From Gnetum montanum (Eukaryota > Plantae > Gnetophyta), in contig MNCI01000690.1 in assembly GCA_015680685.1 (NCBI GenBank), positions 584,319 through 648,206 on the forward strand: DNA of 63,888 nucleotides, in the 5' to 3' direction. The position numbers were made by a program, and so were the translations under genes. This document shows, in pieces, positions 1 through 61,400 of the stretch. A model generated the notes under the pieces. It ran no database searches. It saw nothing but the letters and a program-made list of their open reading frames with translations, and was not told where the DNA came from. The stretch's first letter is position 1; the number at the start of each line of letters is the position of its first letter.

Positions 1-559
1 ACCCTGAACCAATGCAACCTTGGTTACCAAATGCTATTCATTACTAGGATCACCAAGCGTAACGCACATGCTCAAAGCAGTCGTACTGAATCCACTTAAC
101 TATGGGAAAACGGTTGAGAGAGGTTTAATTAACTAATAAAGAATTTAAATGATAAACAATAAATAACAGTAATTAAAATCCTAATTAGCTTAGTCCATGC
201 ACTGCAAGGTTTATCCAAGAAGTTCGTCTTTATTTCCGTACACAAACTTCTGTTCAGGTACAATATTTTCTCGAATGAAGATCCATTCACTTTGGAGCTC
301 CTACTGCAGGCACATGGAAATTATTCTATCTCTAGAGAGGTAAAACTACCAGATTTTTGCTACAGTTTAGGCCTAAACTATGAAACAAGGGAGAGCCGCT
401 TCTTATTTATAGATTTGATGGTGCACTGCGATATCGCGTATGCGATATCGCAGGGGAAGATGTGATATCACATACACGATGTCGTGGGGGATGCGATATC
501 GTGGCGGACACTATATCACATACGTGATATCGTGGCCCATGCGATATCGTGTCCCATCA
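1..559 (-). mobile_element. LTR fragment (Athila-like gypsy), truncated by window edge
   Basis: Ends in ...GTCCCATCA (TGATGGG on minus). Minus-strand TATA (tatttatag ~404) and a GCGATATCGC repeat cluster at 428-550. Positions ~200-550 align visibly with the LTR-like segment at ~56200-56500 (tgttcaggtaca, ctcctactgc.ggcac.tggaaa, tatttatag, gatatc repeats). Confidence 0.65.
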
Positions 560-749
560 ATGAGTAAAAGAAAGGTTGTAATGGATAAGTAAAAATGCAA
601 ATGAAAGTAGCAACTTAGGCTATATGCATAAAGAATAAAACAAAGTACATAAGAAGGTATAACAAATTAAGACAGAAAGGTTAGGCTATGTGGCTATCAA
701 TTCATCTAGTTATAAGGGCATGGAAAGGTTAATGTGCACTTCATTTGCA

Positions 750-1113
750 CAAATTCTTCTTAATCTTTGAAAGATTAGGGAATGAGTAAGGTCTACTTTG
801 CACAAGTTTATATTCCCCATCAACTTCACTAATGATGTTAAAAGGGAGTTCATCCCAAAATGCATCCCATTGCTTATTATTGTTAGCATTAGGTTGTTGC
901 TCTCTCTTAGGTTAACGGACTTTGTAACTAGGAGTTTCCTCCTACAGCTCCACCTTATACCCTTGCTCTATGTTCACATTGTTGATAGCGAAGGAAACGG
1001 TGCTATCATCATGGATAATGATTTCACCTCTCTCGTAAGAAAGGTGAATTTCTTGATGGATGGATGAGCAAATGGTTCATAATTTAGCCAACAATGATCT
1101 CCCAAGGATAAGG
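750..1113 (-). pseudogene. C-terminal part of Tat/Ogre aspartic protease region (left of nested insertion)
   Basis: Minus translation LILGRSLLAKL*TICSSIHQEIHLSYERGEIIIH resembles the NLLLGRPW..(STLHQKLKF) protease motif and joins in frame with the sequence right of 10861. Confidence 0.7.
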
Positions 1114-1118
1114 TTGAA

Positions 1119-1628
1119 TGTGACATCTTGTTTTCAAATGTCGTAAAAATACAAATGCTTAATTTATTACATTCACTATTTTCTTAGATAATATATCGAA
1201 AACATTATAAATACTTAATAAATGAATTAACTAATAAATAAATAAATGGTACTAAAGAATTAAACAAGGAAAATGGAAAAATTATATTAATGGAAGAGAA
1301 TACTGTAACACCCTTTTGGGTTGTCTTCCTATGTTATGTAAGCCTTAGAGGAAATCTGCCACTACCACCATGGTTAGGCTATCCTACCAAAGGGGTGATC
1401 AATATCTTTTTGTCCCACTTCACCTGACTCCCATTACTTACCTTTTCCAGCTCCAAAACTCCATGCCCAACACGACCTCTAATCCCCACCTTAAATGGCA
1501 TAGGTCAAACCCTTTTCCAAGGGATACATGAATAATTGTAACCCCTCATAACTAGGCGCCCCTTCATTAGAAGGTTAATTACATTGTTTACAATTGTTTC
1601 CACCCTTAACAAGGGATGGGACATTACA
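1119..1628 (-). repeat. 3' LTR of chromovirus element
   Basis: TG...CA termini. Colinear with 10347-10856 at roughly 85-90% identity by eye, mostly transitions. Confidence 0.95.
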
Positions 1629-1630
1629 AT

Positions 1631-1640
1631 CTACCCCCCT
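1631..1640 (-). other. Polypurine tract (PPT)
   Basis: AGGGGGGTAG on the minus strand, 2 nt before the 3' LTR TG. Confidence 0.85.
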
Positions 1641-4600
1641 TAAGCATCTAGCTTGTCCTCGAGTGCTTCTTCTATGTCCAGCTGCTCAACTGCTGCTTCA
1701 TCATTATGCTCTTCAACTTGAATTCCTTTATTTTCCTCATTATCATCTATACAAATAAAAGATCAAAAATTATAAACATAATTTATTACAGCCATAACAA
1801 ATACAATTTATTATTTAATATCATGATGTTCAAAAGGTTGAGGATAAGTATTTAAAATAAACTTCCTATTTTCCCAAGTCTGTTGATCANTGGTTTAACT
1901 TCAAAGCTGGTGTTGGATCATAATGGTAAACTATTCCAATATAACACATATGGAACATCATTTTCATGAAATTTCATTAGCAAACTCACATAAAAAACTA
2001 GATGAATTTTAAACATTTCTAAAAGATTCAATTGATATGCTACTTCACCAATTCTTTCAGAAATTTCAAAAGGTCCACAAAATCTAGGTGCCAATTTAGT
2101 ATATTTTTCCAATTTAAGAGAACTTCTAGTAGGTTTTACTTTCAGTAATACTTCATCTCCTACTTGAAATTCTTTTTTAAGTTGATGTTGATTTGCATAT
2201 CCTTTATATTTATCTTGGGTAACTTGTAAATTTTGTTTTACTCTTGTGAGAATGTTTTCCATAATTTTCATTTCTTCTTTCTTCCATTCCATTCTTAAGG
2301 TTGGATTTACCCAGGTTATTGGTGTACGGCAATTACGTCCATATACTACTTCGAATGGTGTTTGATGTATGAACCTTGATAATTGTTATTATATGAAAAT
2401 TCTACCAGATGTAAATGATTCTCCCACGTTTTTGGTCTACTCCCAACATAGCTTCATAGGATATCTTCTAATATTCTATTTACACATTTAGTTTGTCCAT
2501 TAGTCTAAGGGTGATAAGTTGTGCTAACTTTTAACCAAGTTCCAAGCTCTTTCAAGAAATTTCTCTAGAATTCAAATATGAACTTGGGATCTTTGCCGAA
2601 GTGATAGATTTTGGACAATCATACAATCGAAATACTTCACATACAAATTTTTGGGCTAACTTTTTGTTGTGTTTCTAGATTTCAAAGCTATAAAATGTGT
2701 CATCTTTGATAGACGATCAACTACTATGAAAATTGAGTTATTTCCCTTTTTGGTTATTGGCAATCCTGCAATGAAATCTATAGTGATAACTTCCCATTTC
2801 CAGGTTGGAACTTCTAGAGGTTGTAATAATCCACTAAGTTTTTTCTATTCATCTTTTATTCTTTGACATTATGGAAAATTTTTAATGTATGAGGACACAT
2901 CATTCTTTATTCGAGGCCAAAAATAAGATTTGTGAATTATCATATAGGTCTTAATATAACCTGGGTGTCTTGCGTATGGTACTTCATGTGCTTCACATAA
3001 CAACCTTAGTCTCCAATTTTCTTCCAGTATGCATACTCTTTGACCTTTCATTGATAAACCATTACAAGTAAGTTGATATTGAGGCTCATAGGAAATATTT
3101 GTTAAAATCTTTTTAAAATAAGGATCATCTTTTATTTGTCCCTTGATTTCTTCTTCCATAGGAGTTGTTACGACACCTATCATTAAATTCCACATTCGAC
3201 TGAGGGCATTTGCTACCACATTTTTCTTATTGAGAATATATTTGATTTCAAAATCATATTCAACCAATAATTCCATCCATTGCCTTTCACAAGTATTCAA
3301 AATAGGTTGTCTTTGCAAATATTCTAGACTTTTATGTTCTATTTTTAGTACAAACCTTTTTCCTCAAAGATAATGTCTCCAGACTTTCAGAGCATGAACA
3401 ATTGCTAATAATTCTAAATCATAGGTTGAGTAATTTACCTTGGCTCCTCATAATTTACGAGATTCATAACATACCACTTTATCTTCTTGTGAAAGAACTG
3501 CACCAATTCATATTTCCCAAGCATCTATGGATACTTCAAATGATAATTCTTCATCCAAAATTATCAAAATAGGTGTTGTTGTAAGGAGCATCTTTAATCT
3601 AAGAAAAGATTCCCTTCATTTTTCATCAAATTTTAACACATGTTTCTCCTGCAGGTCAGTTAATGGGGCTACCAATGTGGAATAATATTTAATGAAACAT
3701 CAATAAAAATCAACTAAACCTAAGAAACTACGAACTACTATAACATCTTTTAATTTAAGCTAATCCCAGATCACACTAATTTTTGCTAGATCTAGTAGCA
3801 ATCCTTTTTTGGAAACTATATGTCCTAAGTATGAAACTTCTTCCTTAAAGAGTTCGCATTTACTCAATTTAGCTTTTAGTTAATGTTCTTTAAGAATTTC
3901 CATTGTAATTTTCAAATGTTTGATATGTGCTTCTCTTGGCTTAGAATAAAAAAGTATATTATCCATAAATACTATAACAAATTAATTAAGATATTCATGA
4001 AAAATATTATTCATTAATGTCATGAATGTTGTAGGTGCATTAGTTAATCCAAACAACATCACAAAAAATTTGTATAATCCATATCTGGTTCTAAAAGTAG
4101 TTTTCTCAATATCTTTCTCCTTAATCCTTATTTGGTGATAACCAAATTTTAAATCAGTCTTTGAGAAATAACATGCACCCATAAGTTGATCAAATAAATC
4201 ATCGATTCTAGGTAAAGGATAAGTATTTTTAATTGTCACTTTATTCAATGCTCTATAATCGATGCATAATCTTAGTGTACCATCTTTCTTTTTAATGAAT
4301 AAAACTAGTGCATCCCAAGATGATACACTTGGTCTAATTTTTCCTTCTTCTAATAATTGGTCTAATTGTACTTTTAATTCTCTTAATTCTAAAGTAGAAA
4401 ATCTATAAGGAGCTTTTGAGACAGGTTGTGTACTAGAAAAAATGTCAATGGCATGCTCGACAATTCTTTTTGGAGGTAGTTCTCTGATTCACCAAATACT
4501 AAATCTTTATATTTCTTAAGTTCATTCCAAATCTCAACACTTGAAAATTTTTGAGGTTGGGCTACTCTAACAAACAACATTATAGCACCTTTTTTTACTA

Positions 4601-6254
4601 ATCTTTTAGCTTGCTTAATAGTTATCATATGAATTTTCTTTGCTGTTCCTACCCCCCTTAGAACATTGACTCCATCAGTGGTTGGGACATTTAAAATATG
4701 AGTTCCAAAGTGGGCAATAACATCAAAGTTTTACAAAAAAGGCATTCCTAAATTGCATCAACATCACCTAGTTCAAATTCAAAAAAATTCATCAACAGGA
4801 GGCATGTTTTGCAAGGTAATGTTAATTTCTCCATACCTGGTATGTTTGCTCACACTTGTTCCATCTACCAATTCTATCTTAATAATTTTCTTAGAAGGTA
4901 AACTTAATTTCAATAAATTAATTAACTTTGGAAAAATAAAGTTATCACTCGCACCATTATCAATCAAAACTTTACCTTCAATTGAACCTTCAAAAATGAG
5001 TAAAGCAAATTGAAATTTATGCAAACCTGATTTAGTTTATGCAAATATCTTCTTCATTGTTATAGTAGTGATTGAATTTTTCCCTTTACTCATGTTTGGG
5101 TTCGATTTTGGATTTCTAATTTGGTTGGTCCTTTGTATTTTTGCTCAAAATTTTGGGCAATCTCGTTTGAAATGATCTTCACCACAAATAAAACATATAG
5201 ATGCTGATCAAGCTTTTTTCGTTGGTGTCTCTTCTACCATTACTTGTGGAAAAGTAGTTTGTCGAAGAGTTGTTTATCGAATGGTAACTTGTATCTTATT
5301 TGATTCCTCATAATCCTTAGCAATTCTATATGCTTCATCAATGGTTTGAGGATTATGAGCTCGTGTTTGGGGATGTAATTGAGCATGTAGTCCTCTAATG
5401 AATTTTAAAGCTAATTCTCTCTCATCCAGGTGACTTACATACTAACAAAGATCTTAGAATTCCTTATAGTAATCATCTACAAATCACCCTCCCAACCTTA
5501 AGGAATCAAATCTCATTTTTCACTCTTTGAGAAAATAATCAAGAACAAATTTTTGTTCAAAATCTCGACAAAAATTAAGCCAATTTGTAATTAAACCTTG
5601 AGATCTTAGTCCATTCCACCATGTTACCGCAAGTCCTCTTAAATACAAGGAGATAACTTCTAAATGTTCATGGCTTGACAAATTCCACATATCAAAGTAA
5701 TTTTTTATTATATCAAGCTAATCCTTTTCCTTAGCACTAGATCTAAGGGCTCCATCATAATGATCTAATTTTACTTTCTTAGCATGAACTTGTATCAACG
5801 ATTCTCTAGGTGAATTAAGCCAGTTCCCATGTCCCTCATCTTCAATTTTAATTCTATAGCCTACAGGAGGAATTTCGATATCCTATCCACTAGTAGGTAG
5901 AAGTTGTGTTTGGTGTGGATCCTTAGAAGGGAGTTGATCTTGGTGTTGATGTTGTTCCCTAGGTAGACTATGGGTAGGTTTTGAAGGTTGAATAAGATGG
6001 TCAATTAATTGTTTGACGGAGTCTGCAAAGGAATCCATCTTTCCTTGCACATCTGACCATTTATCTTCCAAACTTTGAGATAATTTCTTAATTTTCTTAG
6101 ACATATTTTGCATCTCTATCCTAAACCCTTGGTTTGAGTGACAAAGTTCTTCTTGAACACCCTTGATCTCATTAATTTAATCTTCAAGGGAATTCATCTG
6201 ACAATTGACTCAAGCTTCCATTTCTCTCCAGTTTATTCTTTGGATTCCAAACAT
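1640..6254 (-). pseudogene. gag-pol (gag, protease, RT, RNase H, integrase, chromodomain) with stops and frameshifts
   Basis: Protease [32 protein letters not shown]. RNase H WMELLVEYDFEIKY..NVVANALSR. Integrase Zn-finger HEVPYARHPG and GPF motif KLAPRFCGPFEI. Chromodomain remnant QQTWENRKFILNTYP (~1845-1890). Start position approximate. Confidence 0.9.
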
Positions 6255-6844
6255 CGGTAAGTTGAAAAAATTAGGTATGTTAATAATCCTCAGCCTCTAT
6301 GGCCCTTTTTATGGGATTTGAAATCATTTAGTTAGTTGTGGAAGAAGTTGAAACTGTTATGGATTTCTCACCGAGTACTGAATCTTAATTATTTTTGGGA
6401 CCTAAAACAATGAATTAAATGCTAATTTTCTATAGTCCAAAAGCTAAATCTAACTATTCCATTGAGTCCAAAAGGTTCAAATCTATTAGAATCAATTTTT
6501 TATTTGGTTGAAAATGGACTCAAAATTCAAAAGTTATAGCTATTTTAAGTTTTTTCAACTTTCACATTTTTCAAGACTTTCCAAGAGCTTACCCATCTCA
6601 ACTCTACTCTAGAACATGCACACTTAATGATAAAATTTTTATTTATGTTGTTACCGTAGCACCAATTTAAATTTTTGTAAATAATTGAGGACATTTTCTA
6701 TTTAAACTAAAACTAACAGGCACAAATTTTTTTTGAAAAATTTTCGTCAGTTCACGAAAATTTCAGAATTCCTGTTAATTATCGAAAAAATTCAATTTTT
6801 CCATCAATTCATGGACGACCCATTTCAGGTCCACACGATGGCCA

Positions 6845-7100
6845 GAAGGTGATGATGGGATGGCATAGCAGACAGTGATGAATGACATGAGAGGTGATGA
6901 TGGATGGTGCGAAAGACAGTGATAGGCAACACGGAAGGCAATGATGGACCATGCAAGAGGTAGTGATGGGTGGTGTGGAAGGCAGTGATGCGTGGCTCAG
7001 GAGGTAGTGATAGACTACACGAGAGGCAGTGATGAGCGGTGTGGAAGGTAGTGAAGGATGGCTTTGAAGGCAATGATGGTAATGACGAGAAGGCAGTGAT
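6845..7100. repeat. Degenerate ~22-bp periodic array (core RGGYAGTGATG, ~12 copies) in GC-rich leader segment
   Basis: Cores at ~6845, 6870, 6890, 6913, 6934, 6957, 6978, 7001, 7023, 7044, 7066, 7088. Looser GC-rich repeats continue to ~7500. Confidence 0.8.
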
Positions 7101-7918
7101 GGCATCCACAGTTGCAAGTGACGTGCAATTGTAGGCAGTGTGTAGTTGCAGGCGATGGTAATGCTGCACGATGTAGGGCAGCAGGGTTGCACACTGTAGA
7201 GTGACAAGCTATGCAATGGTGGAAAAGGCATAAGAGATAGCGGCAGCAATGGTTGCGCAAGAGATAGCGACGTGGGCAACAATAGGCGACAGCAGGATAG
7301 TATGACGAACAATGGTGCAACAATGGTAGGTGATCGATAGCAATGTGAGCGAAGTGGGCGGTTGATGATGACAAGGATATGCAGGTGTGGGTTTCTTTTC
7401 TAGTCCCTTTCTTGGGCTAGCCTTAAGGGCCAAACTTATCAACCACGGCCTTGCGACCTGGCCGCAACCTTGCCACTACTCGCTGTGACTTGCTACAGCC
7501 TTGCTGCAAGCCCTGGCATTTTTTTTTAATAATATTTTTTAAATGATTGGGGCTTCAGTTTGAACCTGAGACCCCTTGTTTTATTAATTTTTTTAATTAA
7601 AAAAACATTTTTTAAAAAAAATTAATAAAGATAATATATATATTTTTAAATTTTTTTAACTTTAAACTACACGAAAAATGAACATATCCTTCAAATTTTG
7701 ATGAAATTGGTACCGTTGGAATCATCTCAAAGAGTGCTTTGAGTTAAACTACAAATAATTCTACTTTAATAAACCTAAAAATCCAAAAATCCAAAAAAGT
7801 GAACGTTAACTTTTTCTTTAAAAAGTATACATTAGCTTTTATTAAATCTTTGGTTATCTTAGGTTATACTTTCTCTAGGCTTTAGAGAAGCTTGAAGATT
7901 TTCTATTATAAAAAATTT

Positions 7919-10111
7919 ATGGCTTCCAAATGTCAAGCTTCATCTTAAGCCCCTTTCAGTAGCTCTTTATTGCCTAATATTTTTTTTACACCAAAATAAT
8001 GTCCTTTCTGATTGGGTTCCTAGCTTGCTTTGTAGAGACAGTTTTCAGCTCCTTACCGCTTCTAGATTGGCTGATTTACTAGTTTTTTCAATTTTTAAAC
8101 TTTCCCAATGCAAGAGTATTCTTTCGAAGTGGTTTGAGTAGCATGATAATGAGAAAAGTTCTATTTTTCAATTAGTTTTTGAAGCAATAACAATCCTTCC
8201 TCTTGATATTAAAGTGATCTTAAGTTTTCAGCTAGGAGATGATTCTTTAATTCTTTCAACTCATTCTCAACAATTTAAATCTTTTTGTAAGAAGGAATTA
8301 TCCAATTATGTTACTAATTCTGCCATTCACAAAAACCAATTTGCTCGTAAAGATTTCGTTAACGATGTTCATTTTGAGTTATGTCTATTCATCAATAGCA
8401 AGGTTTTATGGTATAGATAATAACCTAAAGTTAATTCTTATTCTATTTTCATACTTCATGGTGTCATAACTAGTAGAGTTATGATTGGTCATTGTCTTGT
8501 TTTTCTGGTTGGTATACTGTTATGACTAAAATTACTATTTCCCAACAAAATCCTTCCAAATCTTATATCCTATGTTGTATATCCTTGATCATGTGTATGA
8601 TCCTAAGTTATGATCATCCCAAGAAACTTTTTACTCATTACAATCCTTAGTTGTGCCTTGAATTTCTTGAAGATGAGGGGGTTATAAGGATCAAGATTCT
8701 ACATGCCAAGAAAGGTCAACTAGCTTTACAACAAGCTTGGAGTCAAGAAGAAATTAGTGAGGTATTTTCATGTTTCATTATTTTTTTGTTTGTTGATTAT
8801 GTTTTTATTTTATGTATTTGACAATGCAATCTGAGCTGCAGAATGAACCAACGCAGAGTGTTAAAACTACATAGGTTGAAGAAATTCAAGGTACTTCATC
8901 CTTTGGTATGGTTCAATCACAAGAACAGATCTCACTCTCTATTCCCAAGGTATATATATTTAAATAAAACTTACTTAGTTTAATGTCTTATCTCTATTTT
9001 TTTTTCTAATAATTTTTTTTTATATAGAGGCAATGTACTAGGCAAAGTTCTGGTAGTCCAGTTATTATAAGACAACAAACCCAACAACAGGCTCCACAAT
9101 AATCCCAACAAATTCAGTAGAGTTTAATACAAGATAAAGGAAAATAAGCAAAGGTTAGTTTTAGTTATTTAAAGGTTAAAATACTTCCCTTATTCCTTTT
9201 TATGATGTTGATTTTTAATTTTATTTTTCTTATTTTTATTTTTATTATTATCTTTTTCTGTTGTAGAGGTCTATGAAGCAACAATACTTTATCCAAGAGA
9301 TGGATAGAGGTGATGTAGGTGTTACTTCTGCATAGACTCCCAATCTACCACCTAGATCACCAGTCGTGCCTTCTTTTTTTGTGACACGTGGAAGAGGTTT
9401 TCTTTCATAGGTAGCACCAACATTATTTTCTGAGTCTATTTCAATGACTTCTTCTTTCTCAATCTCAAGATCTTCTTATTCAATAGAAAAAATAGTGGTA
9501 GCTGCTAAAGAAAAACTTGTGCTTCTTCAGCGCATTAGCCAACAAATCTCAGATAATAAACCCTATTCTATTCGTGAGGGCGTCTACCATCTATGGGAAT
9601 CTTGGTCATGTGACTTCAAGGAAAGTTATGATTTAATACAAGCTGGAGTTCCATCACCTTTTCATCCAATTTCTGAAGATGCTCCAAATGTTGTAAAAGG
9701 TCTGGAGCAACTCTTAGAAAAATTGGAAAGTGCAACGCACTATGCTCGCCATTTAGTAACTTGTTAATGATTTTTTCAAATTCATAATGATCAATTTCCA
9801 CGTAATATTTATTGTTATTTTTTTTATATTTGTTTGTTGATTTGCTTAGAACTCATAATTTAAATCTTGTTTTGCAGAGGAAAGAGAAAGAATGGCAAAA
9901 AGACATAGATGATCGATTAATACAAATGGATATGTTACAAACCTAACTTAAAGAAAGGAGAAGGCATGCAACTAAATATATTAAACAATTGTGTGATGGA
10001 CTAGCTAGATGCAAAGTAGTGCTTAGCAAGGTAGATGCTACTACTAAAGAAAGAGAATCCCAATTGAACATAGTTATAGATCTTCTTGAATCTTTTGGTC
10101 ATAAAAAATAA
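7919..10111 (+). pseudogene. Five-exon antisense accessory gene of the retrotransposon: PMD/MAIN-like N-terminus, Q/S-rich linker with DKGK, coiled-coil C-terminus
   Basis: Exons 7919-8761, 8842-8949, 9028-9153, 9267-9755, 9878-10111 (1800 nt). Four T-rich GT..AG introns of 80, 78, 113 and 122 nt, all phase 0. Exon 4 is in frame with ORF 9444-9767. Internal stops are TAA/TAG (interpretable as CAA/CAG), plus two compensating frameshifts in exon 1. AATAAA signals at ~10215-10300. Confidence 0.8.
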
Positions 10112-10332
10112 TCATAGTTGTCTTGCTTACATTTTCCCATTCTACTTCTTTTCCCTATTCTTCTTTTTCTATAGCCTGCTATGTACTTCCTCTCACTCCC
10201 CCTTGATTACCAAAATAAAATAAAATAAAATAATTTTTTCCTGTACTTTCTTATTTTTCTCAAATGTACTTGTGTTTTTCAATAATAATAAAATAAAGTT
10301 TTTCTTCCACTTTGGCTCCTGAATTATGGTTT

Positions 10333-10344
10333 GCTCTTATACCA
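10333..10344 (-). other. Primer binding site (tRNA-iMet type)
   Basis: TGGTATAAGAGC, one mismatch to TGGTATCAGAGC, 2 nt from the 5' LTR end. Confidence 0.9.
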
Positions 10345-10346
10345 AA

Positions 10347-10856
10347 TATGACATCCCGTTCCTGGATGTCATAAAAATATGAATGCTTAATTTATTACAT
10401 TTACTATTTTCTTAGATAATATACCGGAAACATTATAAATACTTAATACATGAATTAACTGGTAAATAAATAAATGGTACTAAAGAATTAAACAATGAAA
10501 ATGGAAAAATTATATTAATGGAAGAGAGTACTATAACATCCTTTTTGGTTGTCTTCCTATGCCACTTAAGCCTTAGAAGCAATCCAGCACTGCCACCATG
10601 GTTAGGTTGTCCTGCCAAAGGGGTAATCAATCCCTTTTCTTCCTACTTCACCTAGTTCCCATTACTTGCCTTTCTTGGCTCCGCAACTCCATGCCCAGCA
10701 TGACCTCTAACCCCAATCTTAAATGGCATAGGTCAAACCCTTTCCCAAGGGATACATAAATAATCGTAACCCCTCATAACGAGGTGCCCCTTCGTTAGAA
10801 GGTTAATTACATTGTTTACAATTGTTTCCACCCTTAACAAGGGATAAGACGTTACA
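10347..10856 (-). repeat. 5' LTR of chromovirus element
   Basis: Direct repeat of 1119-1628. Ends ...GTTACA followed by TSD TTGAA. Confidence 0.95.
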
Positions 10857-10861
10857 TTGAA

Positions 10862-13800
10862 CCCTAGCATCTCCTCCACCACCAAGAAATTGGCAGTTGT
10901 GGGGAATTTCTCCCTTATAAGGAAGTTTAAGAAGACAGACCCCTTGACAGTGACCCTAGATTCATTAAAAGACTTAAGGACACTTGTTGATGTAGGTTGT
11001 ATTTGCTTAGTTAGGCCCAAGCTTTCAACAATCATCAACATGCACTTGATACACTTTGAACTACCCTACATGTATGGTTATGAATAAAGGAGCCCTAGTT
11101 ACTTTGCCATTTTGGGGATTAACCTTGATTTCACTATCGCTAAATACTAGGAGTGTTAACTTTCCTCCCTTGATGATGGAGGGACCAGCACTACATGGAT
11201 GGCTTCCTCATTAGTAAGGATGTCCTTACTAATGGGAATGGAAGTTAACATTTTGACTAACACCTCACAATGTGTGCGGAAGTCATGATTAGGTCATATA
11301 AGCTTATAGTTATGTTCTTCTACTTGAGGGATTTCTTGACTTGACCCATCCCACTGAGGAATTTTTTATCATTGGTTGTGGACTTGTTGTCCTAGATGTA
11401 CTTCACTTCCTCCATGTTTCCCAAAATGCAAACTTTAGCTTTAGGTTGTGGTTGTTGGGGCTTTTCCTCATTCTTTTGATTATGGTATTAAGGATCCTCC
11501 TATGGCTTATTGGTTGAAGCAGATTGAGCAGAGGAGGTCGTGAGTATAGCCGAGAGGGAAATGGGCTTTAGTAGGCCTACTTCCTTTCATGCCTTCATCT
11601 GCTTGTCACCCTTGTTGCTAGGATTTTTCTCATAGTTCTTCCTTTGCTTAGTTGAGGTTTTCTAGTTATCAGTCATTGGTTGTAAAGAAGAGGTAGTAGC
11701 ATTAGCCATCACAAGAGGTCATTGTGCAATTGGTTGGGCTACAATTGGTTGGGTTGTGTTAGGCTACGATATTCTAATGACAAAAGTTTTCCTTAAAGGT
11801 ATTCGTGATGTCACTCTTATGAAAAAGAGGGATCTAGAGTTGGTGAAAGCTAAAGAAGCCTTTTCATCACAAGGGGATACTCAGATCACATATGGCTCTC
11901 TTACAAGTCACCGATCATCATCGAATGCATTCAATAGGTCTTTGTACACTTGCATCAACTAATTTTGTGACTAGACTAGCTTAGAAGCATATAAGACCAA
12001 CTCCCTCCTATCTATCATCCACTACAGGTCATCCTTCAGCATAAGGCAAAAGTATGTGTCATGACCAAGCAATTGGTAATAATGGCAAAAGATATCTAGT
12101 TTAAAGTACATAGGTAATTGGGGATCATCCTTTGTTGCTTGAGTGGGATCCTTGACTATTTCACATAGCCACTCATGCTTCTTTCAAATGGTTTCAATCA
12201 TCTGTTTGTATTGGATGCACCCACTCTTCAAAAGCTAATCTAGTAACTTGGATGGTTTCAAAGGTAAGGCAATGTATTTACTTTAATATTTATTATCAAA
12301 ATTTGGCTAGTTGCAATTGATGCAATGGCCCTAAATGTTGATGGTTGTCTATCATGGCTATTAGTGAGAGCCTTGGGTAGGTTGTTCCTTGGCCCCTAGT
12401 TAGTAGTCTTTCCTTCTTTGGTCACTATTGCTATGGCCATGTTGTTTTGTTTGTTCTTTTCCTTATCCCTCTGTGTATGTTAATTTTTATATGCTATGTA
12501 GGCTGGATCATGACTAGCCTCCACAGCATCCTTTATGTTCTTGGTTTGGGAAAACACTTGGCTAAGGGACCATGGATCAAGATAGTAAAGTTTTGACTTG
12601 ATAAAGTCATTCACTGCCCCCTTGAATATGGCTAAAAGGTGGTCCTCAATGATGGATTCTAGTATTTCATTCAACAACCCATTTCATCATTGAATGAACT
12701 TCTGTATAGGTTCTAGGGGTCCCTTCTTGACCTTCATGAGTTGGTCAAGTGTAGTGTTGGGCCTCAAGTTATACTTGAAGTAGTTGATAAATTGGGCTAT
12801 CAAGTCCTCCAAAAAGGATATGGATCCTCTAGGTAATGTGCGGTACCAATCAAGTGCTTTCCCAATCAAAGACATAGGGAGAATCCTCATGATAGTATGA
12901 GGCCACAGTAGCAATAGCAAGCACTTGGATCTAAAGGTTATAAGGTGAGCATTGGGATCACCTTCTCCGTTATACTTACTAAACTAGGGAATAGAAACAC
13001 CAAGAGGAAGTGTCAACAATGGGACCATAGGACTAATGGGATCATCCTAGTAGAAATCCATGATCTTGACAGTTTGTGAAGTAGAGGCTTTAAGCCCCTT
13101 CAACTCCTCCATTAGGCCTTGGATCATCTGGAAAGATTGATCCAGGCCTTGTGGTGGCCCTATTGGCTGTGGGGTTTGCACATATGGTTGCAACATTTTT
13201 TGTGAGGCTTGTGGCCTTGCTATGAATTGTAGGATGGAAGAAAGAGATTATGTTATGGTTGTAGCTTATGGACCAAACAAGGAAAAGGAAGTTTGTGCCA
13301 ATACATGAGACACAAATGGGATAAAGAAGGTGTGTAACCCCTAAGTTGATTAGGTTCCTATGGTGGATCCCCCATGACTGGTCCATGGGCTAATGGTAGT
13401 AGCTACCACCATCATTGGTCGAATTAACCTAGGTTGGGTAGCAAGGGGCATGGAGAAGTGAAAGGTGGTTGGCTATAACACTGATTATGCTTAGTGTGCA
13501 ACGATGGTTGGTGTTGGCCCAAACATGATTAGGAATGATGGGAATGAAGGTGGTGGGACATGCCCATAGGAACAGGCCAAGGAGATAGATATGGGCATCA
13601 TGGCCTTGGGGATCCCTTATTGGAAAAGTTCCCTCAATTTTTCAGATTCAGACTCTACCATGAATTCACTTTTCCTCCTCTGGTTTCCCCTCAGAGGTAA
13701 CCTTCTGGTTATCCTCATCAACCTCAATGAGAAGGGCTAAGACACTAGCATATATGTCATTAAGGGGTATTTGGTCATAAGAGGGAATACACTCCTTTCC

Positions 13801-13914
13801 ATCATGATGGATGAGCTCAAACTTCTGTTTAGCCTCTACTTCCACTCGTGGGATTAACATGCTAGCCTGGATCTTGGCACAAATGAAGTTATATTGTTCT
13901 TCATTTATTGTCAT
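10862..13914 (-). pseudogene. Tat/Ogre-type gag and N-terminal protease, degenerate
   Basis: Retrotrans_gag-like motifs (12480-12960), Pro-rich linker, a CHYHQLLGHDT-type Cys/His motif near 12060-12090, and protease LKSFNESRVTVKG..FLVVEE. Confidence 0.75.
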
Positions 13915-14777
13915 GGAACCAAGACTTTATCCTCTAATTCTAAGAGATTACCTTCATTCCATTATAGTAGGGTCTTTGGGATCATAAACCCTCATGTGTT
14001 GTTGATCTAACCCATTGTCAGTGTAGTTATAAGGCAACTTGGTCAATTGTGAGAGACACATGGCTAGTTCCTTTAAAATGGCTTGAAATAGGCTATAAAA
14101 AGGAAAAAATAAAATCCAATCCTAACATGTGGAATTTAAAAATGATTAAAGGAAGTAAAAATGGCTAAAAATGAAGCATTTTTTATAATTAGTAAGTAAG
14201 GGGTAATGGGGGTTTACCCCTTTACCAAAAATAGAAAAGAAATGTTGGTGTTAAGCCTCACCCACACGCCTCCCAACTATCTCTATGTTGGGTATGTTAA
14301 GGGGGAAAAGAAGGGGAGTGAGACAATGGAAATCTCACACCTTCTAATCCAATGTTGATGAGGGGGGAAAGAATAAAAACCAAAGTGGAAATTTGGTGTT
14401 TTTCCACTAGAATTTGATTTTGGTAGGCTACCAATTTTCTTAACTAGAAAACATGGGGAGGGGAGCTAACTTCCAAAAGTTTGATGGTTTTCAAAAGGGT
14501 TGCACCACCCACCTTGGAAACTAAAAAAATTGGCAGCAATAAGGAAAACGAATGAAGGGTTTCAATGATGGCTTTGGGCTAAAAAATTCATTGCAATTAC
14601 TATGAAAAGCCAACATCTAACCATCTGCAACTTCCATGCTACAGTTTTGGTCAAAGGAGGGAAGGCACGACATTGATTTTTCAAAGTTTTAACTACAAAA
14701 AATCAAAAAAAAAAACCTGCAAATGGTAATGTTGGCAATGGAGAAAAATAGATCTAGTCACAGAAATCAGGCAGAGG

Positions 14778-26754: not shown

Positions 26755-27239
26755 TTATGGTTCTTTTACACTTTGTTTTGGAGAAAGATGTGGGGACTTA
26801 TGAGAACCATTAGGAACAGCAGGTGAAATATCATTCCCTAAAGATGCTTTGTTTCCATTATGTCTGCGTGAATGGTGGGATTGCTGATTTGGCTGTATGG
26901 ATTGATAATTGAAGGAGGCGCTAGCCATATCCTTCAGATTCATCAAGGGGGTAAGAACTTCAACAACATCATTCATTGTGGGCCTAGCCTTTGGATCACG
27001 GCTTAAGCAAAACTGGGCTAACTGAGCTGTCTTTTGAGCACCTTTGATCGAATAGTGTCCATTCAAACGAGGATCTACGAGGCGAAAAACCCTTCGTTTC
27101 TCTGTAAGATAGGGCCGTGCCCACTCAACCAGGTTCTGCTCTTCACTAGGCCGACTTTTATCCATGGATCTTCGACCAGTTATCATTTCCAAGAGGACAA
27201 CTCCAAAACTATAAACATCACTCCTTGATGTTAAATGCC
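26755..27239 (-). CDS. PBL34-like: PBL kinase exon 6 (last)
   Basis: [42 protein letters not shown]...SVKEP* after acceptor TTCCAG|. Confidence 0.95.
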
Positions 27240-30200
27240 CTGGAAGCATACAGGAAAAGTGAATTATAAAAGATTGTGACATTTCTGGCACCATTTTCTC
27301 CTTTAGTCGTTTTTATGTTTTAAAATGCTTTCACAAGGTTTTATTGCTTTTATCTGTATTCATTTGCTTGCATCAGTAGAAATCTTGTAATGACAATTAT
27401 CCATTATCCATCACCGCAGATTTTACTATATAACATAATAATAATAATAAAATCCATAATGTCACATCTTCTTGCCGTTGCTATTTGTAAAAACTGACAA
27501 ATAAAAACTACATGGAGAACACAATAAGTAATCACATTAAATATCAGAATCGAAATAGATTCCAATTGTACATAGCAAAACAGAACGGATATGGAACACA
27601 TTCCAAAATAATTGAACATTTAGAGTTGAGGCTTTATTTTAGCTTAGGCTGTTTATGTTGTAAGAGACTTGCTAGGTACAAATAAATAGAATCAGCACAT
27701 AGAATGCTTCTGATATGCTTCATATGGTTCATGACGACAAGATGATAAATAAAATATTAAATTTCTGTATGGGAAACGAAAACCTATAACTACTATTTGC
27801 CTGGTCACTGTGTTTACCCAATCCCAAAACCAATGATCATGATTAAAACAAACAGGCCCGTGCCATGCTTTATTTTTTTCACTTTACATTATTAATATTT
27901 CTTTAATTTTGCATTTGTCCATTATAAAATGATAAATTTCCAAAAAGGAATCTATAATCTATCAAATAAAGGAACATAAATCCAAATATTTTTCACCCTA
28001 GACCCCAAGAACATATCTTGTTAATTTCTCCCACTAGATCCCCAAGTATACAGTTAGTTAATTGCTTCCACTATGCCCAGTACTCAGACTCGATAATTAA
28101 ATCTGTAAGCCAATAGTGAACAGTGCTAAACACGCCAAAGGCCTCTGTCCTAGCCTTATACATTATAAGAAAATCACCAAAGATGGAAGACAGTTTTCCA
28201 TAAAGTGAACTTGGAGTTTCAATACAAAATGGGTTGCTGAGAGCTAACTTGGAGCAAATCATTGCAATAACATATCGAGGTGCAAACATTATAGGCACTA
28301 CAATTAGAGGTACATGTACTCAAAAAAATTGTCAGCTGAAAATCAAAAACTGACAATTGCCTATGACCTGATTAAAATGTCTATATAGGAGTTATAACCT
28401 TAGATTTATGATACAGTTGATTTTGGTGAAAGCCAACCATAGAAAATCATCTTCAAATTCTTCACCTACTTTAACAGGTTAGTCCATAGTGATGAGATAG
28501 GAATTGAGACAGTAACTGTCATTGCCACTGCTGCTCAAGTTGTATCTGTGCATTTGATATTGCATTTCTATTTAAAACAGTTTCTCCAATCATTGATTAT
28601 GTTATCTAAAATAACATCATAATTGTTTCATAGGGGTTTCTTCGCTATTTATGCTTTCCTACTCGTTTAATTTGGATAACCATTAAATCATTGTCTTTTC
28701 ACTTGTTACATTTTACTTTTAAACAGCTTCTTCAATTATTGTTTCTGTTATCTAAAATAGTATTGTAATTGCTCCAAAAGGCTTTCTTCACTATTTACCC
28801 ATTCCTATTCAGTAAAAATGCTCTCTTAATGATTTATCTATTTACATTTTTGAAATTAAGCTTTAGCAAGTCCTAAACTTGTACCTCTCTCAAAGGCAAG
28901 TTTTGTTGAAGATTGTGGTTTCTATATTTGACTTACCCTTCCTGAATGCATGTTCCAAACTTCTACTCTTACTTTGATACAACCTCTGGATGTTGCCCAA
29001 CATTCTCAATTTTTGTTATCTTCCAGTTAATGACTAAACATCATAGCTTTTCGGAGCTTCTATTTAAAATTATTCCTTTCATCTTCCAGTATAGCAATAC
29101 CATATCTTGATTATATGTACCTACAAGACATATAACCAACCTCATACTTTCATAGAACATACAGAGAATATAAAGGTGCCTCAAGTATGACTCAAACTAG
29201 GAAGCTCTTTCCAGAAAATCCTTGTTAGATGATGAGATAACCACTTGAGCTACCTGCCATTCACAGCATACACCCAATTTGCCTAAGCTTGGTATTCTAC
29301 ATCACATAATTTTTAGATTTCTCACATGGTCAAGTTTCAGCATCAATCTTAATGCCCTCTCCAAAATGACTGTCAACCAACAATGATAAGCCTAACTCTG
29401 TTGTTGCATTGTAACCCTTTCACTAGAAACTCCCAGCATTGAAAAATGACAATGAATTTTAACAGGACAAGGTGACTCTTGGACAGGTTCCAAGAGAAGG
29501 ATCTAAAGTGATACTTCCTTGTAATGATTGTGAACCAACAAAAGGTTATCTACAAGAGTATTGCAAAAATATGGCATCAAATGTCAAAAATGGGTCAAAT
29601 TAGATTGATGCTAGAGCACAGGTTCTCAATGACATATGGTAAGCAAAAGCAGACAAAATTAAACCTTGCTTCACTTCGAAGGAAAGAGCCATAAATATAC
29701 AAGTTTAATTGAGCAACAGACAGCTATTTAGCCTCATTTATATAATCAATTCACATATCCCACTGATAGGCATTCACTGGAAAAGTGCACAGAAAAATAA
29801 TTGATTTTATGATTATTTTTAAGTATAAGAAAGTTAAATAATCTATACAACGCTTTTGAAGGATTCCATAGATACTTTTCAAATGATTGAATGGCTTAGA
29901 TGAAATATAGCAGCATGGGCATATTAAAAGAATTGGCAGCATCCAATAATATGGACTCAATCATACATTTTAGAAACAAGTCTTTGCTTTATATATATAT
30001 ATAAGAATTGAAACAAACGGTGAAAAGACTTGGACAATATTCACAGCATCAAGTTAAATGACAAAAAGCTTTTGTATTCAAAAAGGAAAATTTAGAACAA
30101 TGGAGGTTGTATTTACAGGAACTACTAAACAAAGAATTGCCTAGAGACAAAGTTGAAGATACCAAATCAAATGTAGTAACGACTAACTATATATATGCCT

Positions 30201-42200: not shown

Positions 42201-45200
42201 TGATTCCATTAATCTTGAGAACAAGCATTGGTTATCTTTAAGTCATATTTCCCTCTTCTCTGAGAAACAGACAGGCATTATATGAAAACCCAACCCCAAA
42301 AAGCTACAACAAAGGCCCTTGAAAAATCTGCAAAGCAGAGAAGTCATTTGGGAAAAGGGAGGAATTTACAACCACAGATGGGCTTCTCTTGACCATGAAC
42401 TCTATCCACAACAATGTGCTCAGCCTCAGAGCTGGTATAGTTGGCAGCCTCCTACAACCTTTGAAAGCATTCCTCCCTCGCTTTTTTCTGATCCTCTTCA
42501 AACCCATGTGCCTTGTCAACGTGTAGTGTTAATGACGTGCAGATAACATAGGAGTGCAAAGGCATTTTACTATTAATACCATGCTCGGCGTATGGACATC
42601 TACCAGCCTGAAAACAATGACAAGTATTAATCTCATGGTGCTCTAAAAATTGGTCTGATTTCCTCTTAATGTCGTTCCTCTTTCTGTCGAATCAGCCTCT
42701 CTTGCTGGGCCACCCATCTAGCCTGCACCTCCTCTTCCTATGGTATTCGCTCTTCAAACTCCTGCCCCTCAGCCTCCCTTCTCTGTTCTTCAACTTAACG
42801 AGTGCACTCCTGCTCCACCTCCTAAGCGTCTCACATCTTTAAGTCAGCCTCCCTTCTCTGTTCCTCAACTTGGCAAGTGCACTCCTGCTCCACCTCCAAA
42901 GCATCTCACATCTTTAAGTCAGCCTCCCTTCTCTATTCTTCAACTTGGCAAGTGCACTCCTGCTCCACACCCTAAGCATCTCACATCTTTAAGTCTTTGT
43001 TACCATTGGGATTTGATTAAATTTCATTCATTTATTAATTATGATTCTATATGTTGTTATTAATAATTGTTATTATTGACCAACTTAAGGTTGGAATTGT
43101 TGCCAGCTTTCATATAATTCTGTAGTTGGACTAGTTTTAGTTTAATAAAAACCACTAGGAGCATTGGATTGTTACACAAAAACTATAGGAAATGGACACA
43201 TTAGTTTGTCCTCAAGCTAAATCTTTCACTCCATGCAAGGACCAAAAATAGTTAAATCATGGGCTCAAACTTTTTCTTTTCTTTCTTTCTTTCTTGTTTT
43301 CGTTTTGTTTTGTTTTTTTTGTTTTTTGAAAAAGGTAGAAAGAAAACTGATCAATAAAACATAAGACCAAGTACAGCCCAAAAACAATGATAGTGATAAT
43401 AAATGAAATAGACTAATCATCTCAAGGTACAAATCCATTCCTGACCTTGGATATGTAAATTTAATCCTGTAAGATTCAAAATCCTAGGAAATCAAATCCT
43501 ATGTTATATTTCACATTCTTGTTTTTTACTCGTATCTATATTGTTTTCTATTCCCTCAAAAATTCATTAATCTCTTTCATTCTTACATTCAAACATCATA
43601 TGTACTAGCAAAGAACTCCACATTTTATTACATTTTGTTCTCTAATTCATGTCCAAGTTGTAAATTCATTAAGTTCTCTCATTCATACATTCAAAGATCA
43701 TATGTACTAGCAAAAACCTCCACACTTTATTAGATTTTGTTCCCTAATTCATGTCCAAGTTGTAAATTCAATAATTTCTTTCATTCTTACATTCAAAGAT
43801 CATATGTACTAGCAAAGAACTCCACATTTTATTACATTTTGTTCCATAATTCATGTCCAAGTTGTTTCCATCTTGAAGAGATTTTGACATTATAAAAATG
43901 TTGATTAGTAGTTGCCCAAACATTATTCTAGGTATCAGCAACTGAAACATAATTCATGAAGTCATGGACATATGATTACCATCCTCACAAGCACTCCTAC
44001 AAAAACATCCATTAATTATCATCATCCTCATTTCATCAAAGTATCTATTGTTAAATGTTTCTTGCTTTTTAAGATGTCTACAAAAACAGATAAACATTAG
44101 GAATCAAGCACACTTTCCTCCAGCAAATAGCTTCTTTATATAGTTAATCTATGCATAAAATCCCATATGCCTTTGCAATTTGGTATAAGTTTCTAGTTTT
44201 CCATAACAAATTTTCAGCATCCTAAGATTTCATACAATGATCTTTCATCCATGTATGCATTTTCTCAAAAGACAGATTCTCTCTCTATATTATCAAAAAT
44301 AATATGCAGTCCTTCCAAAAATTCTTCTAGTTGATTTTAAAAGGAAGGAAGCTGGTGTTAGAACATACACCTTTTTTTATCAATAATATTTACCCCAAGA
44401 CATATAGCCAATGCAAAACTTTGATTTATAACTCAGCACTGCCCACTGAAATTGAACCTATAACTTGGACCCATAACCCAAAGCATGAGAGAGTAAGTGA
44501 GTAAATAAGCATGAGGGTGTCGGGTGAGGGAGGTATCGTGAACACAAAATAATTTGACTATAAATACACACTAAGGCATATAGTCAGTATGATACTTGAA
44601 AGGAATTATAAAGGAATATAAAAATATCTTAAGTGTGACTCAAATCAACTAACTCTTACCTACAAATCCTTGTCAAGCAATAAACTAACCACTTCAACCA
44701 ACTTTCATGAGCACTATCATTTTTAAAAGCACCTCATAAAGCTTAAAAAAAAAAAAAAGAGATCATCACCCAAGTATCAATGCTCATCTTGCCAAGCAGA
44801 GTCCCAAGAGAGTTAGTAGATGAGCAATAGCTTGACCTCTTCAAGTGGCTGCACCTAACTCAAACATCTTACCATCACTCCAAACAAGCACCTTATCAAG
44901 TTTTAGAAACTAAAAAATCATCTTGAATTTTATTATAACATGAATGTTCAAGCATGATGGTTTGTATCACCCATAAATCATTAAAAATAAATCTAATAAT
45001 TTAATGAATAATCCTTTTCTACATGAACTTCTTTGAAAATTTCATTATATCAAAAACATGTTTGTGGAAGCACTATTTTTATTAGATATCAAGTCCTTTA
45101 AACAATAAAGGAATATGCTTTAAACAATAAGGAATAGCTTATTTGGTCAGAACATGTCGCTTGGGATTGAGCAAATCATAGGTTTGATTCCTTGGTGTAT

Positions 45201-57219: not shown

Positions 57220-57557
57220 AAGTCACTGAAAGTGGTTGGTTTTGATTTGGACTAAGGATGGATCCTACTAAGTCATTTAATCATGAACTCCACAAGGGAC
57301 TTTATGTGACCAGAATAAGGAACTCCATTATATTCTCTCTCTCATCCATTTATGCTTTTCATGCCTCACCTCACTACCANGAATCAAAACATGAAACTGG
57401 TAGTGAGGTGAGGCATGAAAGGCATAAATGGATGAGAGAGAGAATATAACGGAGTTCCTTATTCTGGTCACATAAAGTCCCTTGTGGAGTTCATGATTAA
57501 ATGACTTAGTAGGATCCATCCTTAGTCCAAATCAAAACCAACCACTTTCAGTGACTT
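57220..57557. repeat. 160-bp inverted repeat (57220-57379 vs 57398-57557, 2 mismatches); likely assembly artefact
   Basis: The left arm is bounded by N at 57219 and N at 57380. Confidence 0.9.
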
Positions 57558-58488: not shown

Positions 58489-61400
58489 TTAGTATGGATG
58501 ACCATCTTCTCCATGACTAAGTTGGAAGGGGGAGACTTGAAAGATTGAGTGTGGTTGTCCATCTAGTGAGATGTTTGTTGAGTTCGTAGGCTTGGGTTCA
58601 TGGAAAGGTTTCAGTTGTTGGATGTTGACTAATTGCTTCTTATCTGGGCTATCAGGTTTATATATAATCATGGCCCTAAATCGAAAATTCTCTTAAATAA
58701 TGTAAGGTCCTTCTCACAACGTTTGAAATTTAGTTCGTTGAGGTATGTGTGTAGGATTCCAATAGAGAACCTTGTCTCTTGATTGAAACTTGACTTTCCT
58801 TATTTTGAGGTCATGGCGTTTCTTATTGGATGCCTTATGCATTTCATTGGATGATAGGACCATTAATTGATTTTTATCTAGCAAGTTGAGGTTCGTTAAT
58901 CTTTCCTTTTGTGCTAGACTTAGATCCATGTCAAGGTCATAGCCTGTAGAGAGTGTACAAAGCTCAAATTGGATGGGCAATGTTGGTAGTTTTCCGTACA
59001 TGAGCTCATAAGGAGAATAACCTATGGAAAGCTTCCATGTGGGATGATAGGCCCAGAGGGCATCATTTAATTTGGTGCTCCAATCCCTTCAGTACTTGTT
59101 AATAGTAAGCATTAGAATTTTTGTAATCTCCTAATTAGTGACTTTAGCTTAACCATTGGTTTAAGGATGATAAGGTGTTGTGACTTTGTGCTCAACCCCC
59201 AAGTGCTGCATAAGTTTTGGAAAAGTGACACCTATGAAATGAGTTCCATTGTCAAAAATTAATGCACGAGGCACACCAAACATGTTTATGATATTCTGTT
59301 ATACAAACCGAGTAGTAGTAGTGGATGTGCAGTCAATGATAGCTGCTGCTTCTACCCACTTAGTGCAATAGTCAACTGCAACTATTATATACATCTTTCC
59401 ATTTGATAAAGGCATGATGGGACCCATAAAGTCAATGCCCCAAATATCGAATGGCTCGAGAGGTTGAATCCATTGTTGTGGCCCCTCCATTTGAGCTGTC
59501 ATTCCACTATCCCTTTGACAATGATCATAAGCATGGAAAAATTGGTGTGCATCCTTGAAGATTGTTGGCCAGTAATATCTTACCATGAGGATTTTTATGG
59601 CTGTGCATCTCCTAGCATAATGGCCCCCACAAGGGCCTTCGTGAGCATCCTAGAGAAGGCGTACTTGATCTATGTCAAGGAAACACTAGCGTACTAGGCC
59701 ATCAAGACATACTTTGTAAAGATTCCTATTAATTTTCATGAAATGCTTAACCTAGTAAAGAAATTGTTGTTTCTTTCGGGTGTCCAATCCTTGTGGTAGT
59801 TCTTTCTTGAGTAGATAAGTGAGAATGGTGTCATACCATCTTGGTTCATTGGGCATTTGTGCATTAATAGCCCCTACAAGGAGAGATTCATTAGTAAATT
59901 AATCAGATAAGGGGCTCTCTTTCTCCTTGTTGTCCCATCTTCGTCATGATAAGTGGTCAATGATCACATTTTCCACATGCTTTCAATCTACCATTGTGAG
60001 ATTGAACTCTTGCAAAATCATGAGCCACCGTATGACACGGGGACTCACCATTGGTTTATTCATTAAGAACTAGATGGCACTATGATCTGTGTGCATGAAC
60101 ACTTTATAACCAAGCACATAGTGCCTGAACTTTTCTAAGGTAAACACCACCGCCATTAATTCCTTTTTCGTAGTGGTGTAGTTCAACTATGCACTTGCGA
60201 TACTTCGACTTGCATAATGAATGTAATATGGACATTTTTGATCATCCAGCTATGTGAGCACTACCACCAAAGCATAATTTGGTGCATCAGTCATCACATG
60301 AAATGGCTTGGACCAATTGAGTACTTGTAGATTTGGGATTTCAACAAGCTTTTACTTTAATTATTGAAAGGTTGTTTCACACATAGGGGTCCAGACAAAT
60401 GGTGCATCTTTCTTTGTTAATTTAACCAATGGCTTAGTGATTTTAGAAAAATTTTCAATGAAGCATCGATAGTAGCCAATATGACCAAGGAATGTCTACA
60501 CTTCTTTAACTGTTTCCAGTTGACGGGTTATTCCTTGGATGACCCTTATCTTTTCAAGGTCCACTTCAATTCCTGCTTTTGAGATATAATGCCCCAAGAT
60601 TAAGCCTTCTTGGACCATAAGATGGATCTTTTACCAATTGAGCGAGAGGTTTGTTTTGATACATCTCCTTAACACCTGCTCAAGACAGTCCAGGGCTTGC
60701 TCGAATGTAGCTCTGTAGGTAGAAAAGTCATCCATGAAGACTTCTACCTCACTACCAATTTATTATTGGGAAATGCTAAGTACTAATCATTAAAATGTAG
60801 CTAGGGTATTACATAGACCGAATGACATCAAAGGGTAAGCAAAAGTCCCCCAAGGACTTGTGAAAGTCATCTTCACCTGATCCTCTGGTGCGATCTAGAT
60901 TTGGTTATAGCCACTATAATCATCCAAAAAGTTGTAGTAGTTGTAATCAGAAATGGTGTCCAACACTTGGTCAACAAAAGACAACAAAAATTATCTTTGA
61001 AAGTTGCCATATTGAGTAGTTAGAAGTTGATGCACACCCGCCATTTGCCTTCTTTCTTGGGCATGATCACGAGTGGACTAACTTACTCACTATCTGTAAT
61101 AGGGTGGATGAATGCTGCCTTGAGGAGTTACTCGATCTCTTCTTTGAAAATTTACTTTAATTTGGGATTCAAATGCTGCTGCGGTTGTCATTTCGGCTTG
61201 ATGACGGGGTCAGTGTATATCCAGTGCTGGCATATTCTTGGATCTATTCCTATGAACTTGAAATATGATTAGGCAAAGGCTACTGACCATTTTTCCACAA
61301 CATTCATCAACATCTTCTTTTGTCCTATAGCAAACTTGGCATTAATAATGACAAGCCTTCCATTTTTCAAGAACACATACTCCATTCTGGTCAGTAATGT

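Follow-up and report, generated by a model that had tools for sequence, protein, structure and literature searches.

The host element

The window analysed here is the whole stretch of 63,888 nucleotides taken from one contig of Gnetum montanum. Its composition is AT-rich, full of repeats and plant-like. On the minus strand, at 1119-10856, lies a complete, decayed Ty3/gypsy LTR retrotransposon. Between its primer binding site (PBS) and gag, on the plus strand and opposite to gag-pol, sit an antisense gene and its introns. The parts of the host element are:

1114-1118, unstranded: left copy of the target site duplication, 5 bp, identical to 10857-10861
1119-1628, minus: 3' LTR, 510 bp, pairs with the 5' LTR
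1629-1641, minus: polypurine tract, a purine run adjoining the 3' LTR
1650-6250, minus: decayed gag-PR-RT-RH-INT with a chromodomain-like tail, placed by Pfam domains and the upstream gag frame; the gag start is approximate
6870-7121, unstranded: degenerate 22-bp tandem array of 10 copies between gag and the antisense gene (repeat scan, TRF)
10333-10344, minus: primer binding site with one mismatch, from the element boundary analysis
10347-10856, minus: 5' LTR, 510 bp, pairs with the 3' LTR
10857-10861, unstranded: right copy of the target site duplication, identical to 1114-1118

The two LTRs align without gaps and are identical at 445 of 510 positions (87.3%), a K2P distance of 0.144. Pfam matches on the minus strand are Retrotrans_gag, Asp protease, RVT_1, RT_RNaseH, Integrase_H2C2 and SH3_Tf2-1. 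The order gag-PR-RT-RH-INT is that of Ty3/gypsy elements, and LTRs, target site duplication, PBS and polypurine tract are all present. The element is dead, with 8 stops in 300 codons of gag. A Pfam search of the integrase C-terminus gave no match to the Chromo domain. The tail is called chromodomain-like because of a weak alignment (E 35) to the last part of a polyprotein annotated with Chromo, which is collinear with a strong match just before it.

Database proteins share no more than 70% identity with the reverse transcriptase (RT). In a tree made from 30 of 120 matches, with no lineage-labelled references among them, the RT clusters with 22 others, most of them from named seed plants, with support 94/96. 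We take these neighbours to be of the Tekay lineage. The PBS is presumably of the initiator tRNA-Met type. This PBS type, the 5-bp target site duplication, the size and the lack of an additional RNase H are all compatible with Tekay, and are also common to other chromovirus lineages. The element is probably chromovirus-like, and Tekay-like.

The DNA around it (10862-13900 and 1-1113, minus strand) is an older gag-bearing element that hosts the nested copy (Retrotrans_gag E 0.001). This older element is presumably Tat/Ogre-like.

The leader of the genomic RNA, 6300-10345 on the minus strand, is about 4 kb long and contains 55 ATGs before gag. Ordinary scanning to gag is therefore implausible, and translation of gag-pol must rely on an internal start, on a shunt or on splicing. 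A donor-like site is found at 10130 (minus), 19 nt past the stop codon of the antisense gene, and the T-rich acceptor at 7775 (minus) is the only such one in the leader on that strand. The candidate sense-strand intron 10130-7775, defined by this one donor motif and this one acceptor motif, may excise the whole antisense gene from the gag-pol mRNA. If it does, it would shorten a leader that is otherwise both long and crowded with start codons. The stop-free frames at 6809-7416 are due to the 22-bp tandem array.

The antisense gene and its introns

The gene and its surroundings, all on the plus strand, are laid out as follows. Contig depths refer to the two DNA runs described further below.

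7805-7878, plus: candidate fifth (upstream) intron from the intron scan, weaker than the other four and outside the contig-mapped stretch
7896-8761, plus: exon 1 remnant, a putative folded domain, hydrophobic and about 290 codons long, by stop map and composition; no start codon assigned
8762-8841, plus: intron 1, 80 nt, phase 0; contig depth 5869 and 10253 at 8796
8842-8949, plus: exon 2, by composition an S/P/Q/T/G-rich linker; frame without independent signal
8950-9027, plus: intron 2, 78 nt, phase 0; contig depth 2821 and 4692 at 8951
9028-9153, plus: exon 3, by composition a Q-rich linker; frame without independent signal
9154-9266, plus: intron 3, 113 nt, phase 0; canonical donor letter at +3 in most contigs
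9267-9755, plus: exon 4; 2 stops in 163 codons, P 0.004
9756-9877, plus: intron 4, 122 nt, phase 0; good acceptor, doubtful donor, where depth falls and loose ends diverge
9878-10111, plus: exon 5, through the stop codon, with a predicted coiled coil; 1 stop in 76 codons, P 0.003
10214-10292, plus: four matches to poly(A)-signal-like hexamers past the stop, weak evidence in AT-rich DNA

The candidate intron at 7805-7878 lies a little way before exon 1, and a first exon with the start codon may precede it.

All four introns run from GT to YAG, measure 78-122 nt, are 52-61% T on the plus strand and lie in phase 0. The same four intervals read on the minus strand run from CT to AC and are A-rich. 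When the whole 64-kb window is scanned on both strands, 10 intron-like clusters come up, 4 of which are these introns, at thresholds that were chosen after the introns had been seen. The choice of thresholds has little effect on the region itself: all 6 sets tried give 4-5 clusters at 8.7-9.95 kb on the plus strand, and none on the minus strand. In Markov resamples of the region, strict thresholds never produce two or more clusters (0 of 300, where 4 are observed), and loose thresholds produce 4 clusters in 4 of 300, again with 4 observed. Frame preservation taken alone is modest evidence, since 459 of 9216 alternative GT/AG boundary sets leave equally few stops, which is a P of about 0.05.

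Exons 4 and 5 each have a frame signal of their own, and the coding signal reaches upstream to about 7896. Exon 1 has a single stop in 174 codons over 7896-8417 (P 0.0004). The stop map places a frame switch in the present copy somewhere around 8.42-8.55 kb. For exons 2 and 3 the frame signal is P 0.48 and 0.68. A minus-strand ORF as the cause of the low stop counts at exon 1 was ruled out by the stop analysis. The whole coding remnant comes to about 605 codons with 11 stops, longer than first noted. It can be compared with the decay of its host, where gag has 8 stops in 300 codons and RT-RH has 8 in 233. The gene is no more stop-ridden than gag-pol, and therefore was probably still intact around the moment when the present copy inserted.

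The initial annotation had proposed four introns between LTRs, facing away from the genomic RNA and keeping a reading frame, in a separate mRNA from an internal promoter that would overlap the 5' LTR transcript, with potential for dsRNA/siRNA or interference. The anatomy is borne out, and the mRNA, its promoter and any dsRNA role are putative. The introns are there as T-rich, phase-0 intervals with GT..YAG ends, beyond what the resamples lead one to expect. The target duplication, PBS and polypurine tract confirm that the LTRs are true ones, and the CT..AC ends, the A-richness and the position of gag-pol on the minus strand confirm the orientation. The convergent overlap of more than 2 kb is correct as geometry. 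The reading frame needs more care. All introns are in phase 0, and the joined exons from 8654 to 10105 have 7 stops in 353 codons, where the other two frames have 24 and 33; but the frame is not open, and exons 2 and 3 do not add a signal of their own.

From the letters, the layout of the protein would be a putative hydrophobic folded N-terminal part, a linker rich in S, P, Q and T, and a C-terminal coiled coil. In exon 5 the best heptad phase has hydrophobic residues at 71% of a/d positions. A single-sequence fold of exon 1 was unusable (pLDDT 39.5).

The gene product has no relatives in the collections searched. A phmmer search against 1.84 billion representatives gave 0 matches at E 0.001, and a word-indexed protein search gave 0 of 6918 and 0 of 208 candidates, which had lengths near that of the query. 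There was no credible match in Pfam and NCBIfam. An astrovirus profile matched at E 0.03-0.1, under the cut-off of that profile, and was rejected. The best E in the PDB was above 1.7, and the ESM Atlas had no usable match to the stop-free part of exon 4. Among 599 metagenome stretches and 2 viral stretches no related locus was confirmed, a junction pattern search gave 0 matches, and so did Rfam over 1-14000.

Two short stretches of exon 1 resemble what we take to be motifs of the PMD domain. The PMD profile (PF10536) and PMD proteins gave no match by Pfam or phmmer, with a decayed query searched in pieces. Membership of the PMD group, suggested by these motifs, was rejected, though a remote relation is possible.

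Copies and expression of the family

In an archive look-up, 11 DNA runs from four studies contain part of the stretch; the same look-up found no RNA runs that do. Contigs from two of the DNA runs, labelled as different organisms, were mapped at 80% likeness to 7900-10200 only. This placed 6087 and 6978 contigs, with 30 of 30 bins covered in both runs. Depth within introns 1-3 is 1247-10253 at the places listed. Of 51 joints, 15 were listed; none of these removes an intron, and each has a depth of at most 20. At position +3 of the intron-3 donor most contigs (61 and 43) have the canonical letter, so the family has a better consensus than the present copy.

The situation around the start of intron 4 is different. 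Over 9748-9824 the contig depth falls by a factor of more than ten, to around 145, between bins of 2200-4700, and three joints there show replaced sequence. A line of loose ends from 14 contigs differs from the present copy at the donor, which is not common to most contigs. On the acceptor side the loose ends retain the T-rich tract and YAG. The intron-4 donor may be specific to the present copy, or it may be misplaced. The expectation that family copies keep the introns thus holds for introns 1-3, at high depth and with no intron-less joint among those listed, but is doubtful for the donor of intron 4.

No contig among those listed spans the whole of 7900-10200, and the linkage of the gene to LTR and gag-pol in other copies is thus putative. 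DNA contigs rarely continue into unlike sequence (0.05 and 0.04 in the two runs). The copy was also compared with the family majority: among 40 differences listed, with 833 more existing, 4 are intronic and were left out, and 7 of the 36 exonic ones are synonymous. This share is what neutral decay of the present copy would give, and does not bear on selection in the active lineage.

Two RNA runs were searched. The first holds 8 reads in 12.6 million records, and the second 516 reads, nearly all partial poly-T matches. Neither contains a spliced joint; with almost no real reads, and for an old silenced family, these runs are uninformative on expression.

No terminal inverted repeats frame the gene beyond AT-rich noise, among the 25 longest of 70 pairs. 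The combination of terminal inverted repeats and a transposase domain that marks DNA transposons (CACTA, MULE, hAT) was not found.

Comparison with known systems

Antisense genes in retrotransposons are not new. The papers cited here were available in part, and the comparisons apply to those parts. Antisense extra ORFs have been reviewed, including their own promoter and a possible role in dsRNA (PMC7264820).

Extra ORFs in the 5'-reverse position (eORF-5'R) are reported from 12% of 782 Tekay elements by Neumann et al. 2019 (PMC6317226). These are uninterrupted, at least 250 codons long, and were found with getorf (PMC6317226). The Gnetum gene has the position that defines this class: antisense to gag-pol, upstream of gag and within the LTRs. 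Compared by description only, the likeness includes antisense coding upstream of gag, a tRNA-Met PBS, a 5-bp target site duplication and a length of 9.7 kb, within the 5.6-20.7 kb given for Tekay (PMC6317226). Their ORFs are uninterrupted, however, whereas at least four introns divide the Gnetum gene, which is without known homologue.

The aORF-3R genes (maize Grande gene23, rice RIRE2, Silene Retand, bean PvRetro13) are likewise antisense to gag-pol (PMC7264820; PMC11963269). They are family-wide, an internal promoter has been shown for gene23, and a dsRNA role has been proposed (PMC7264820; PMC11963269). Unlike the Gnetum gene they have their place between pol and the 3' LTR, and the available text describes no introns in them; that of the Retand paper uses the word 'intron' 0 times. 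The extra ORFs of Tat/Ogre elements with a PMD and a coiled coil share the layout of a folded N-terminal domain, a linker and a C-terminal coiled coil (PMC4408406; PMC5418596). The Gnetum gene, in contrast, has no PF10536 or phmmer match and its host is chromovirus-like, not Tat. It also differs from the aORF-3R genes in having no TRP28 or PMD match.

The brtn gene of Boty-like elements in Botrytis is reportedly spliced. Its discovery (Zhao et al. 2011, cited in PMC8365987 and PMC7264820) is a further case of an additional antisense gene in Ty3/gypsy, but a fungal one, placed between pol and the 3' LTR. HBZ of HTLV-1 is a spliced, polyadenylated antisense gene in an element that replicates through RNA; it differs in belonging to an animal retrovirus, in transcripts that begin in the 3' LTR, and in an unrelated protein (PMC1459196).

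Plant LTR retrotransposons are described as mostly intron-free, with sense-strand exceptions (PMC12786077). Ogre, EVADE and the sunflower elements Tyran and Varan do contain introns, but these have the same sense as the genomic RNA and persist by partial splicing (PMC12786077; PMC7730604). Retrotransposition reporters use the same logic of intron orientation in reverse (PMC12786077).

The novelty claimed by the initial annotation was overrated. Antisense extra ORFs with their own promoter, the dsRNA idea, 5'-reverse ORFs and a spliced antisense gene in HTLV-1 had already been published. New here are the several introns, the 5' leader position and the orphan protein, while antisense accessory genes and the eORF-5'R position class were already known. 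The literature searched contains no case in plants of an element whose 5' leader holds an antisense gene with several introns; subscription journals fell outside it, and Steinbauerova 2011 and Zhao 2011 may describe such cases.

Interpretation

The introns interrupt a decayed plus-strand gene in the 5' leader. This was likely a family-borne accessory gene, the introns of which were copied intact because they lie backwards on the genomic RNA. We put the probability of this reading at roughly 0.7. Intron retention through antisense orientation to the genomic RNA is textbook logic, and the mechanism is not new. The introns would persist through retrotransposition because they are CT..AC on the genomic RNA, and so invisible to the spliceosome there.

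The transcript from the 5' LTR would read the gene backwards, and every new copy would inherit the introns. A separate plus-strand mRNA, spliced and polyadenylated, would be made from an internal promoter near 7.5-7.8 kb, and would end near the hexamers at 10214-10292, just before the PBS. Such an antisense mRNA would be without the LTR ends needed for reverse transcription, and therefore the spliced form would never replace the intron-bearing form. Head-on transcription over the leader would be a by-product, which may time or dampen the output of genomic RNA.

If the gene is real, the leading candidate for its protein, at somewhat less than even odds, is a nuclear accessory factor that served the element in trans, by analogy with Grande gene23 and the PMD-coiled-coil ORFs. 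It is possible, if rather doubtful, that the family is the first example of an overlooked class of accessory genes in plant chromoviruses. Such genes would be antisense and multi-intron, would sit in the 5' leader and code for an orphan protein family, and would have been missed by long-ORF screens.

The gene could also be a passenger without function for the element. A captured piece of a host gene, or a nested DNA transposon or Helitron, may have landed backwards in the leader, and may have been amplified with the element or be abundant by itself. Several short phase-0 introns do resemble those of an ordinary nuclear or DNA-transposon gene. High contig depth is by itself no proof of linkage to the element, and the differences between copy and family hold no selection signal. 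This origin is nevertheless unlikely. Had a host gene been captured recently, or were this a transposase, a match should have turned up among the 1.84 billion representatives, which contained 0 homologues, and no terminal repeats were seen among the 25 longest of 70 pairs. The 3' end of the gene reaches to about 220 nt from the PBS. A neutral passenger that had been carried along for long would have more stops, yet the stop density is comparable to that of gag-pol; and the shares of DNA contigs that continue into unlike sequence are low (0.05, 0.04).

It may be that the RNA mattered and the protein was secondary, with spliced antisense RNA that covers the leader and the PBS region limiting the element through dsRNA/siRNA or interference with LTR transcription. 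The overlap does span the genomic-RNA leader, such a role has been proposed for antisense ORFs (PMC7264820), and Ty1 is restrained by antisense RNAs (PMC12786077). Against this, around 600 codons of frame and the coiled-coil pattern suggest that selection acted on a protein, and we regard an RNA unit as improbable. We give hardly any credence to the idea that introns and frame are accidental patterns in AT-rich leader DNA. The post hoc scan thresholds, the missing frame signal of exons 2 and 3, the absence of RNA support in 2 runs and the lack of a homologue would all sit well with chance. Strict resamples that reach 2 clusters in 0 of 300, where 4 are observed, would not; nor would a strand-specific signal, or three exons that each have independently low stop counts.

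That a high-copy family has an antisense gene with several introns suggests that surveys for long uninterrupted ORFs undercount accessory genes. A 2020 review points to this gap and asks that antisense and spliced transcripts be looked for (PMC7264820). As for where the gene came from, several short canonical introns suggest that genomic DNA or a nascent RNA was captured, or that introns were gained later, rather than that a spliced mRNA was transduced.

Elsewhere in the window

The window contains a second, more distant Ty3/gypsy pol at 58700-61200 on the minus strand, and a protein kinase domain fragment at 26755-27312, also on the minus strand. A near-perfect inverted repeat lies at 57220-57557, with 160-nt arms that are 99% complementary and an 18-nt loop. 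It could represent a MITE, a hairpin RNA or a fold-back in the assembly. Young tandem repeats are found at 42769-42995, 43560-43865 and 48284-48451, with units of 75, 102 and 84 bp.
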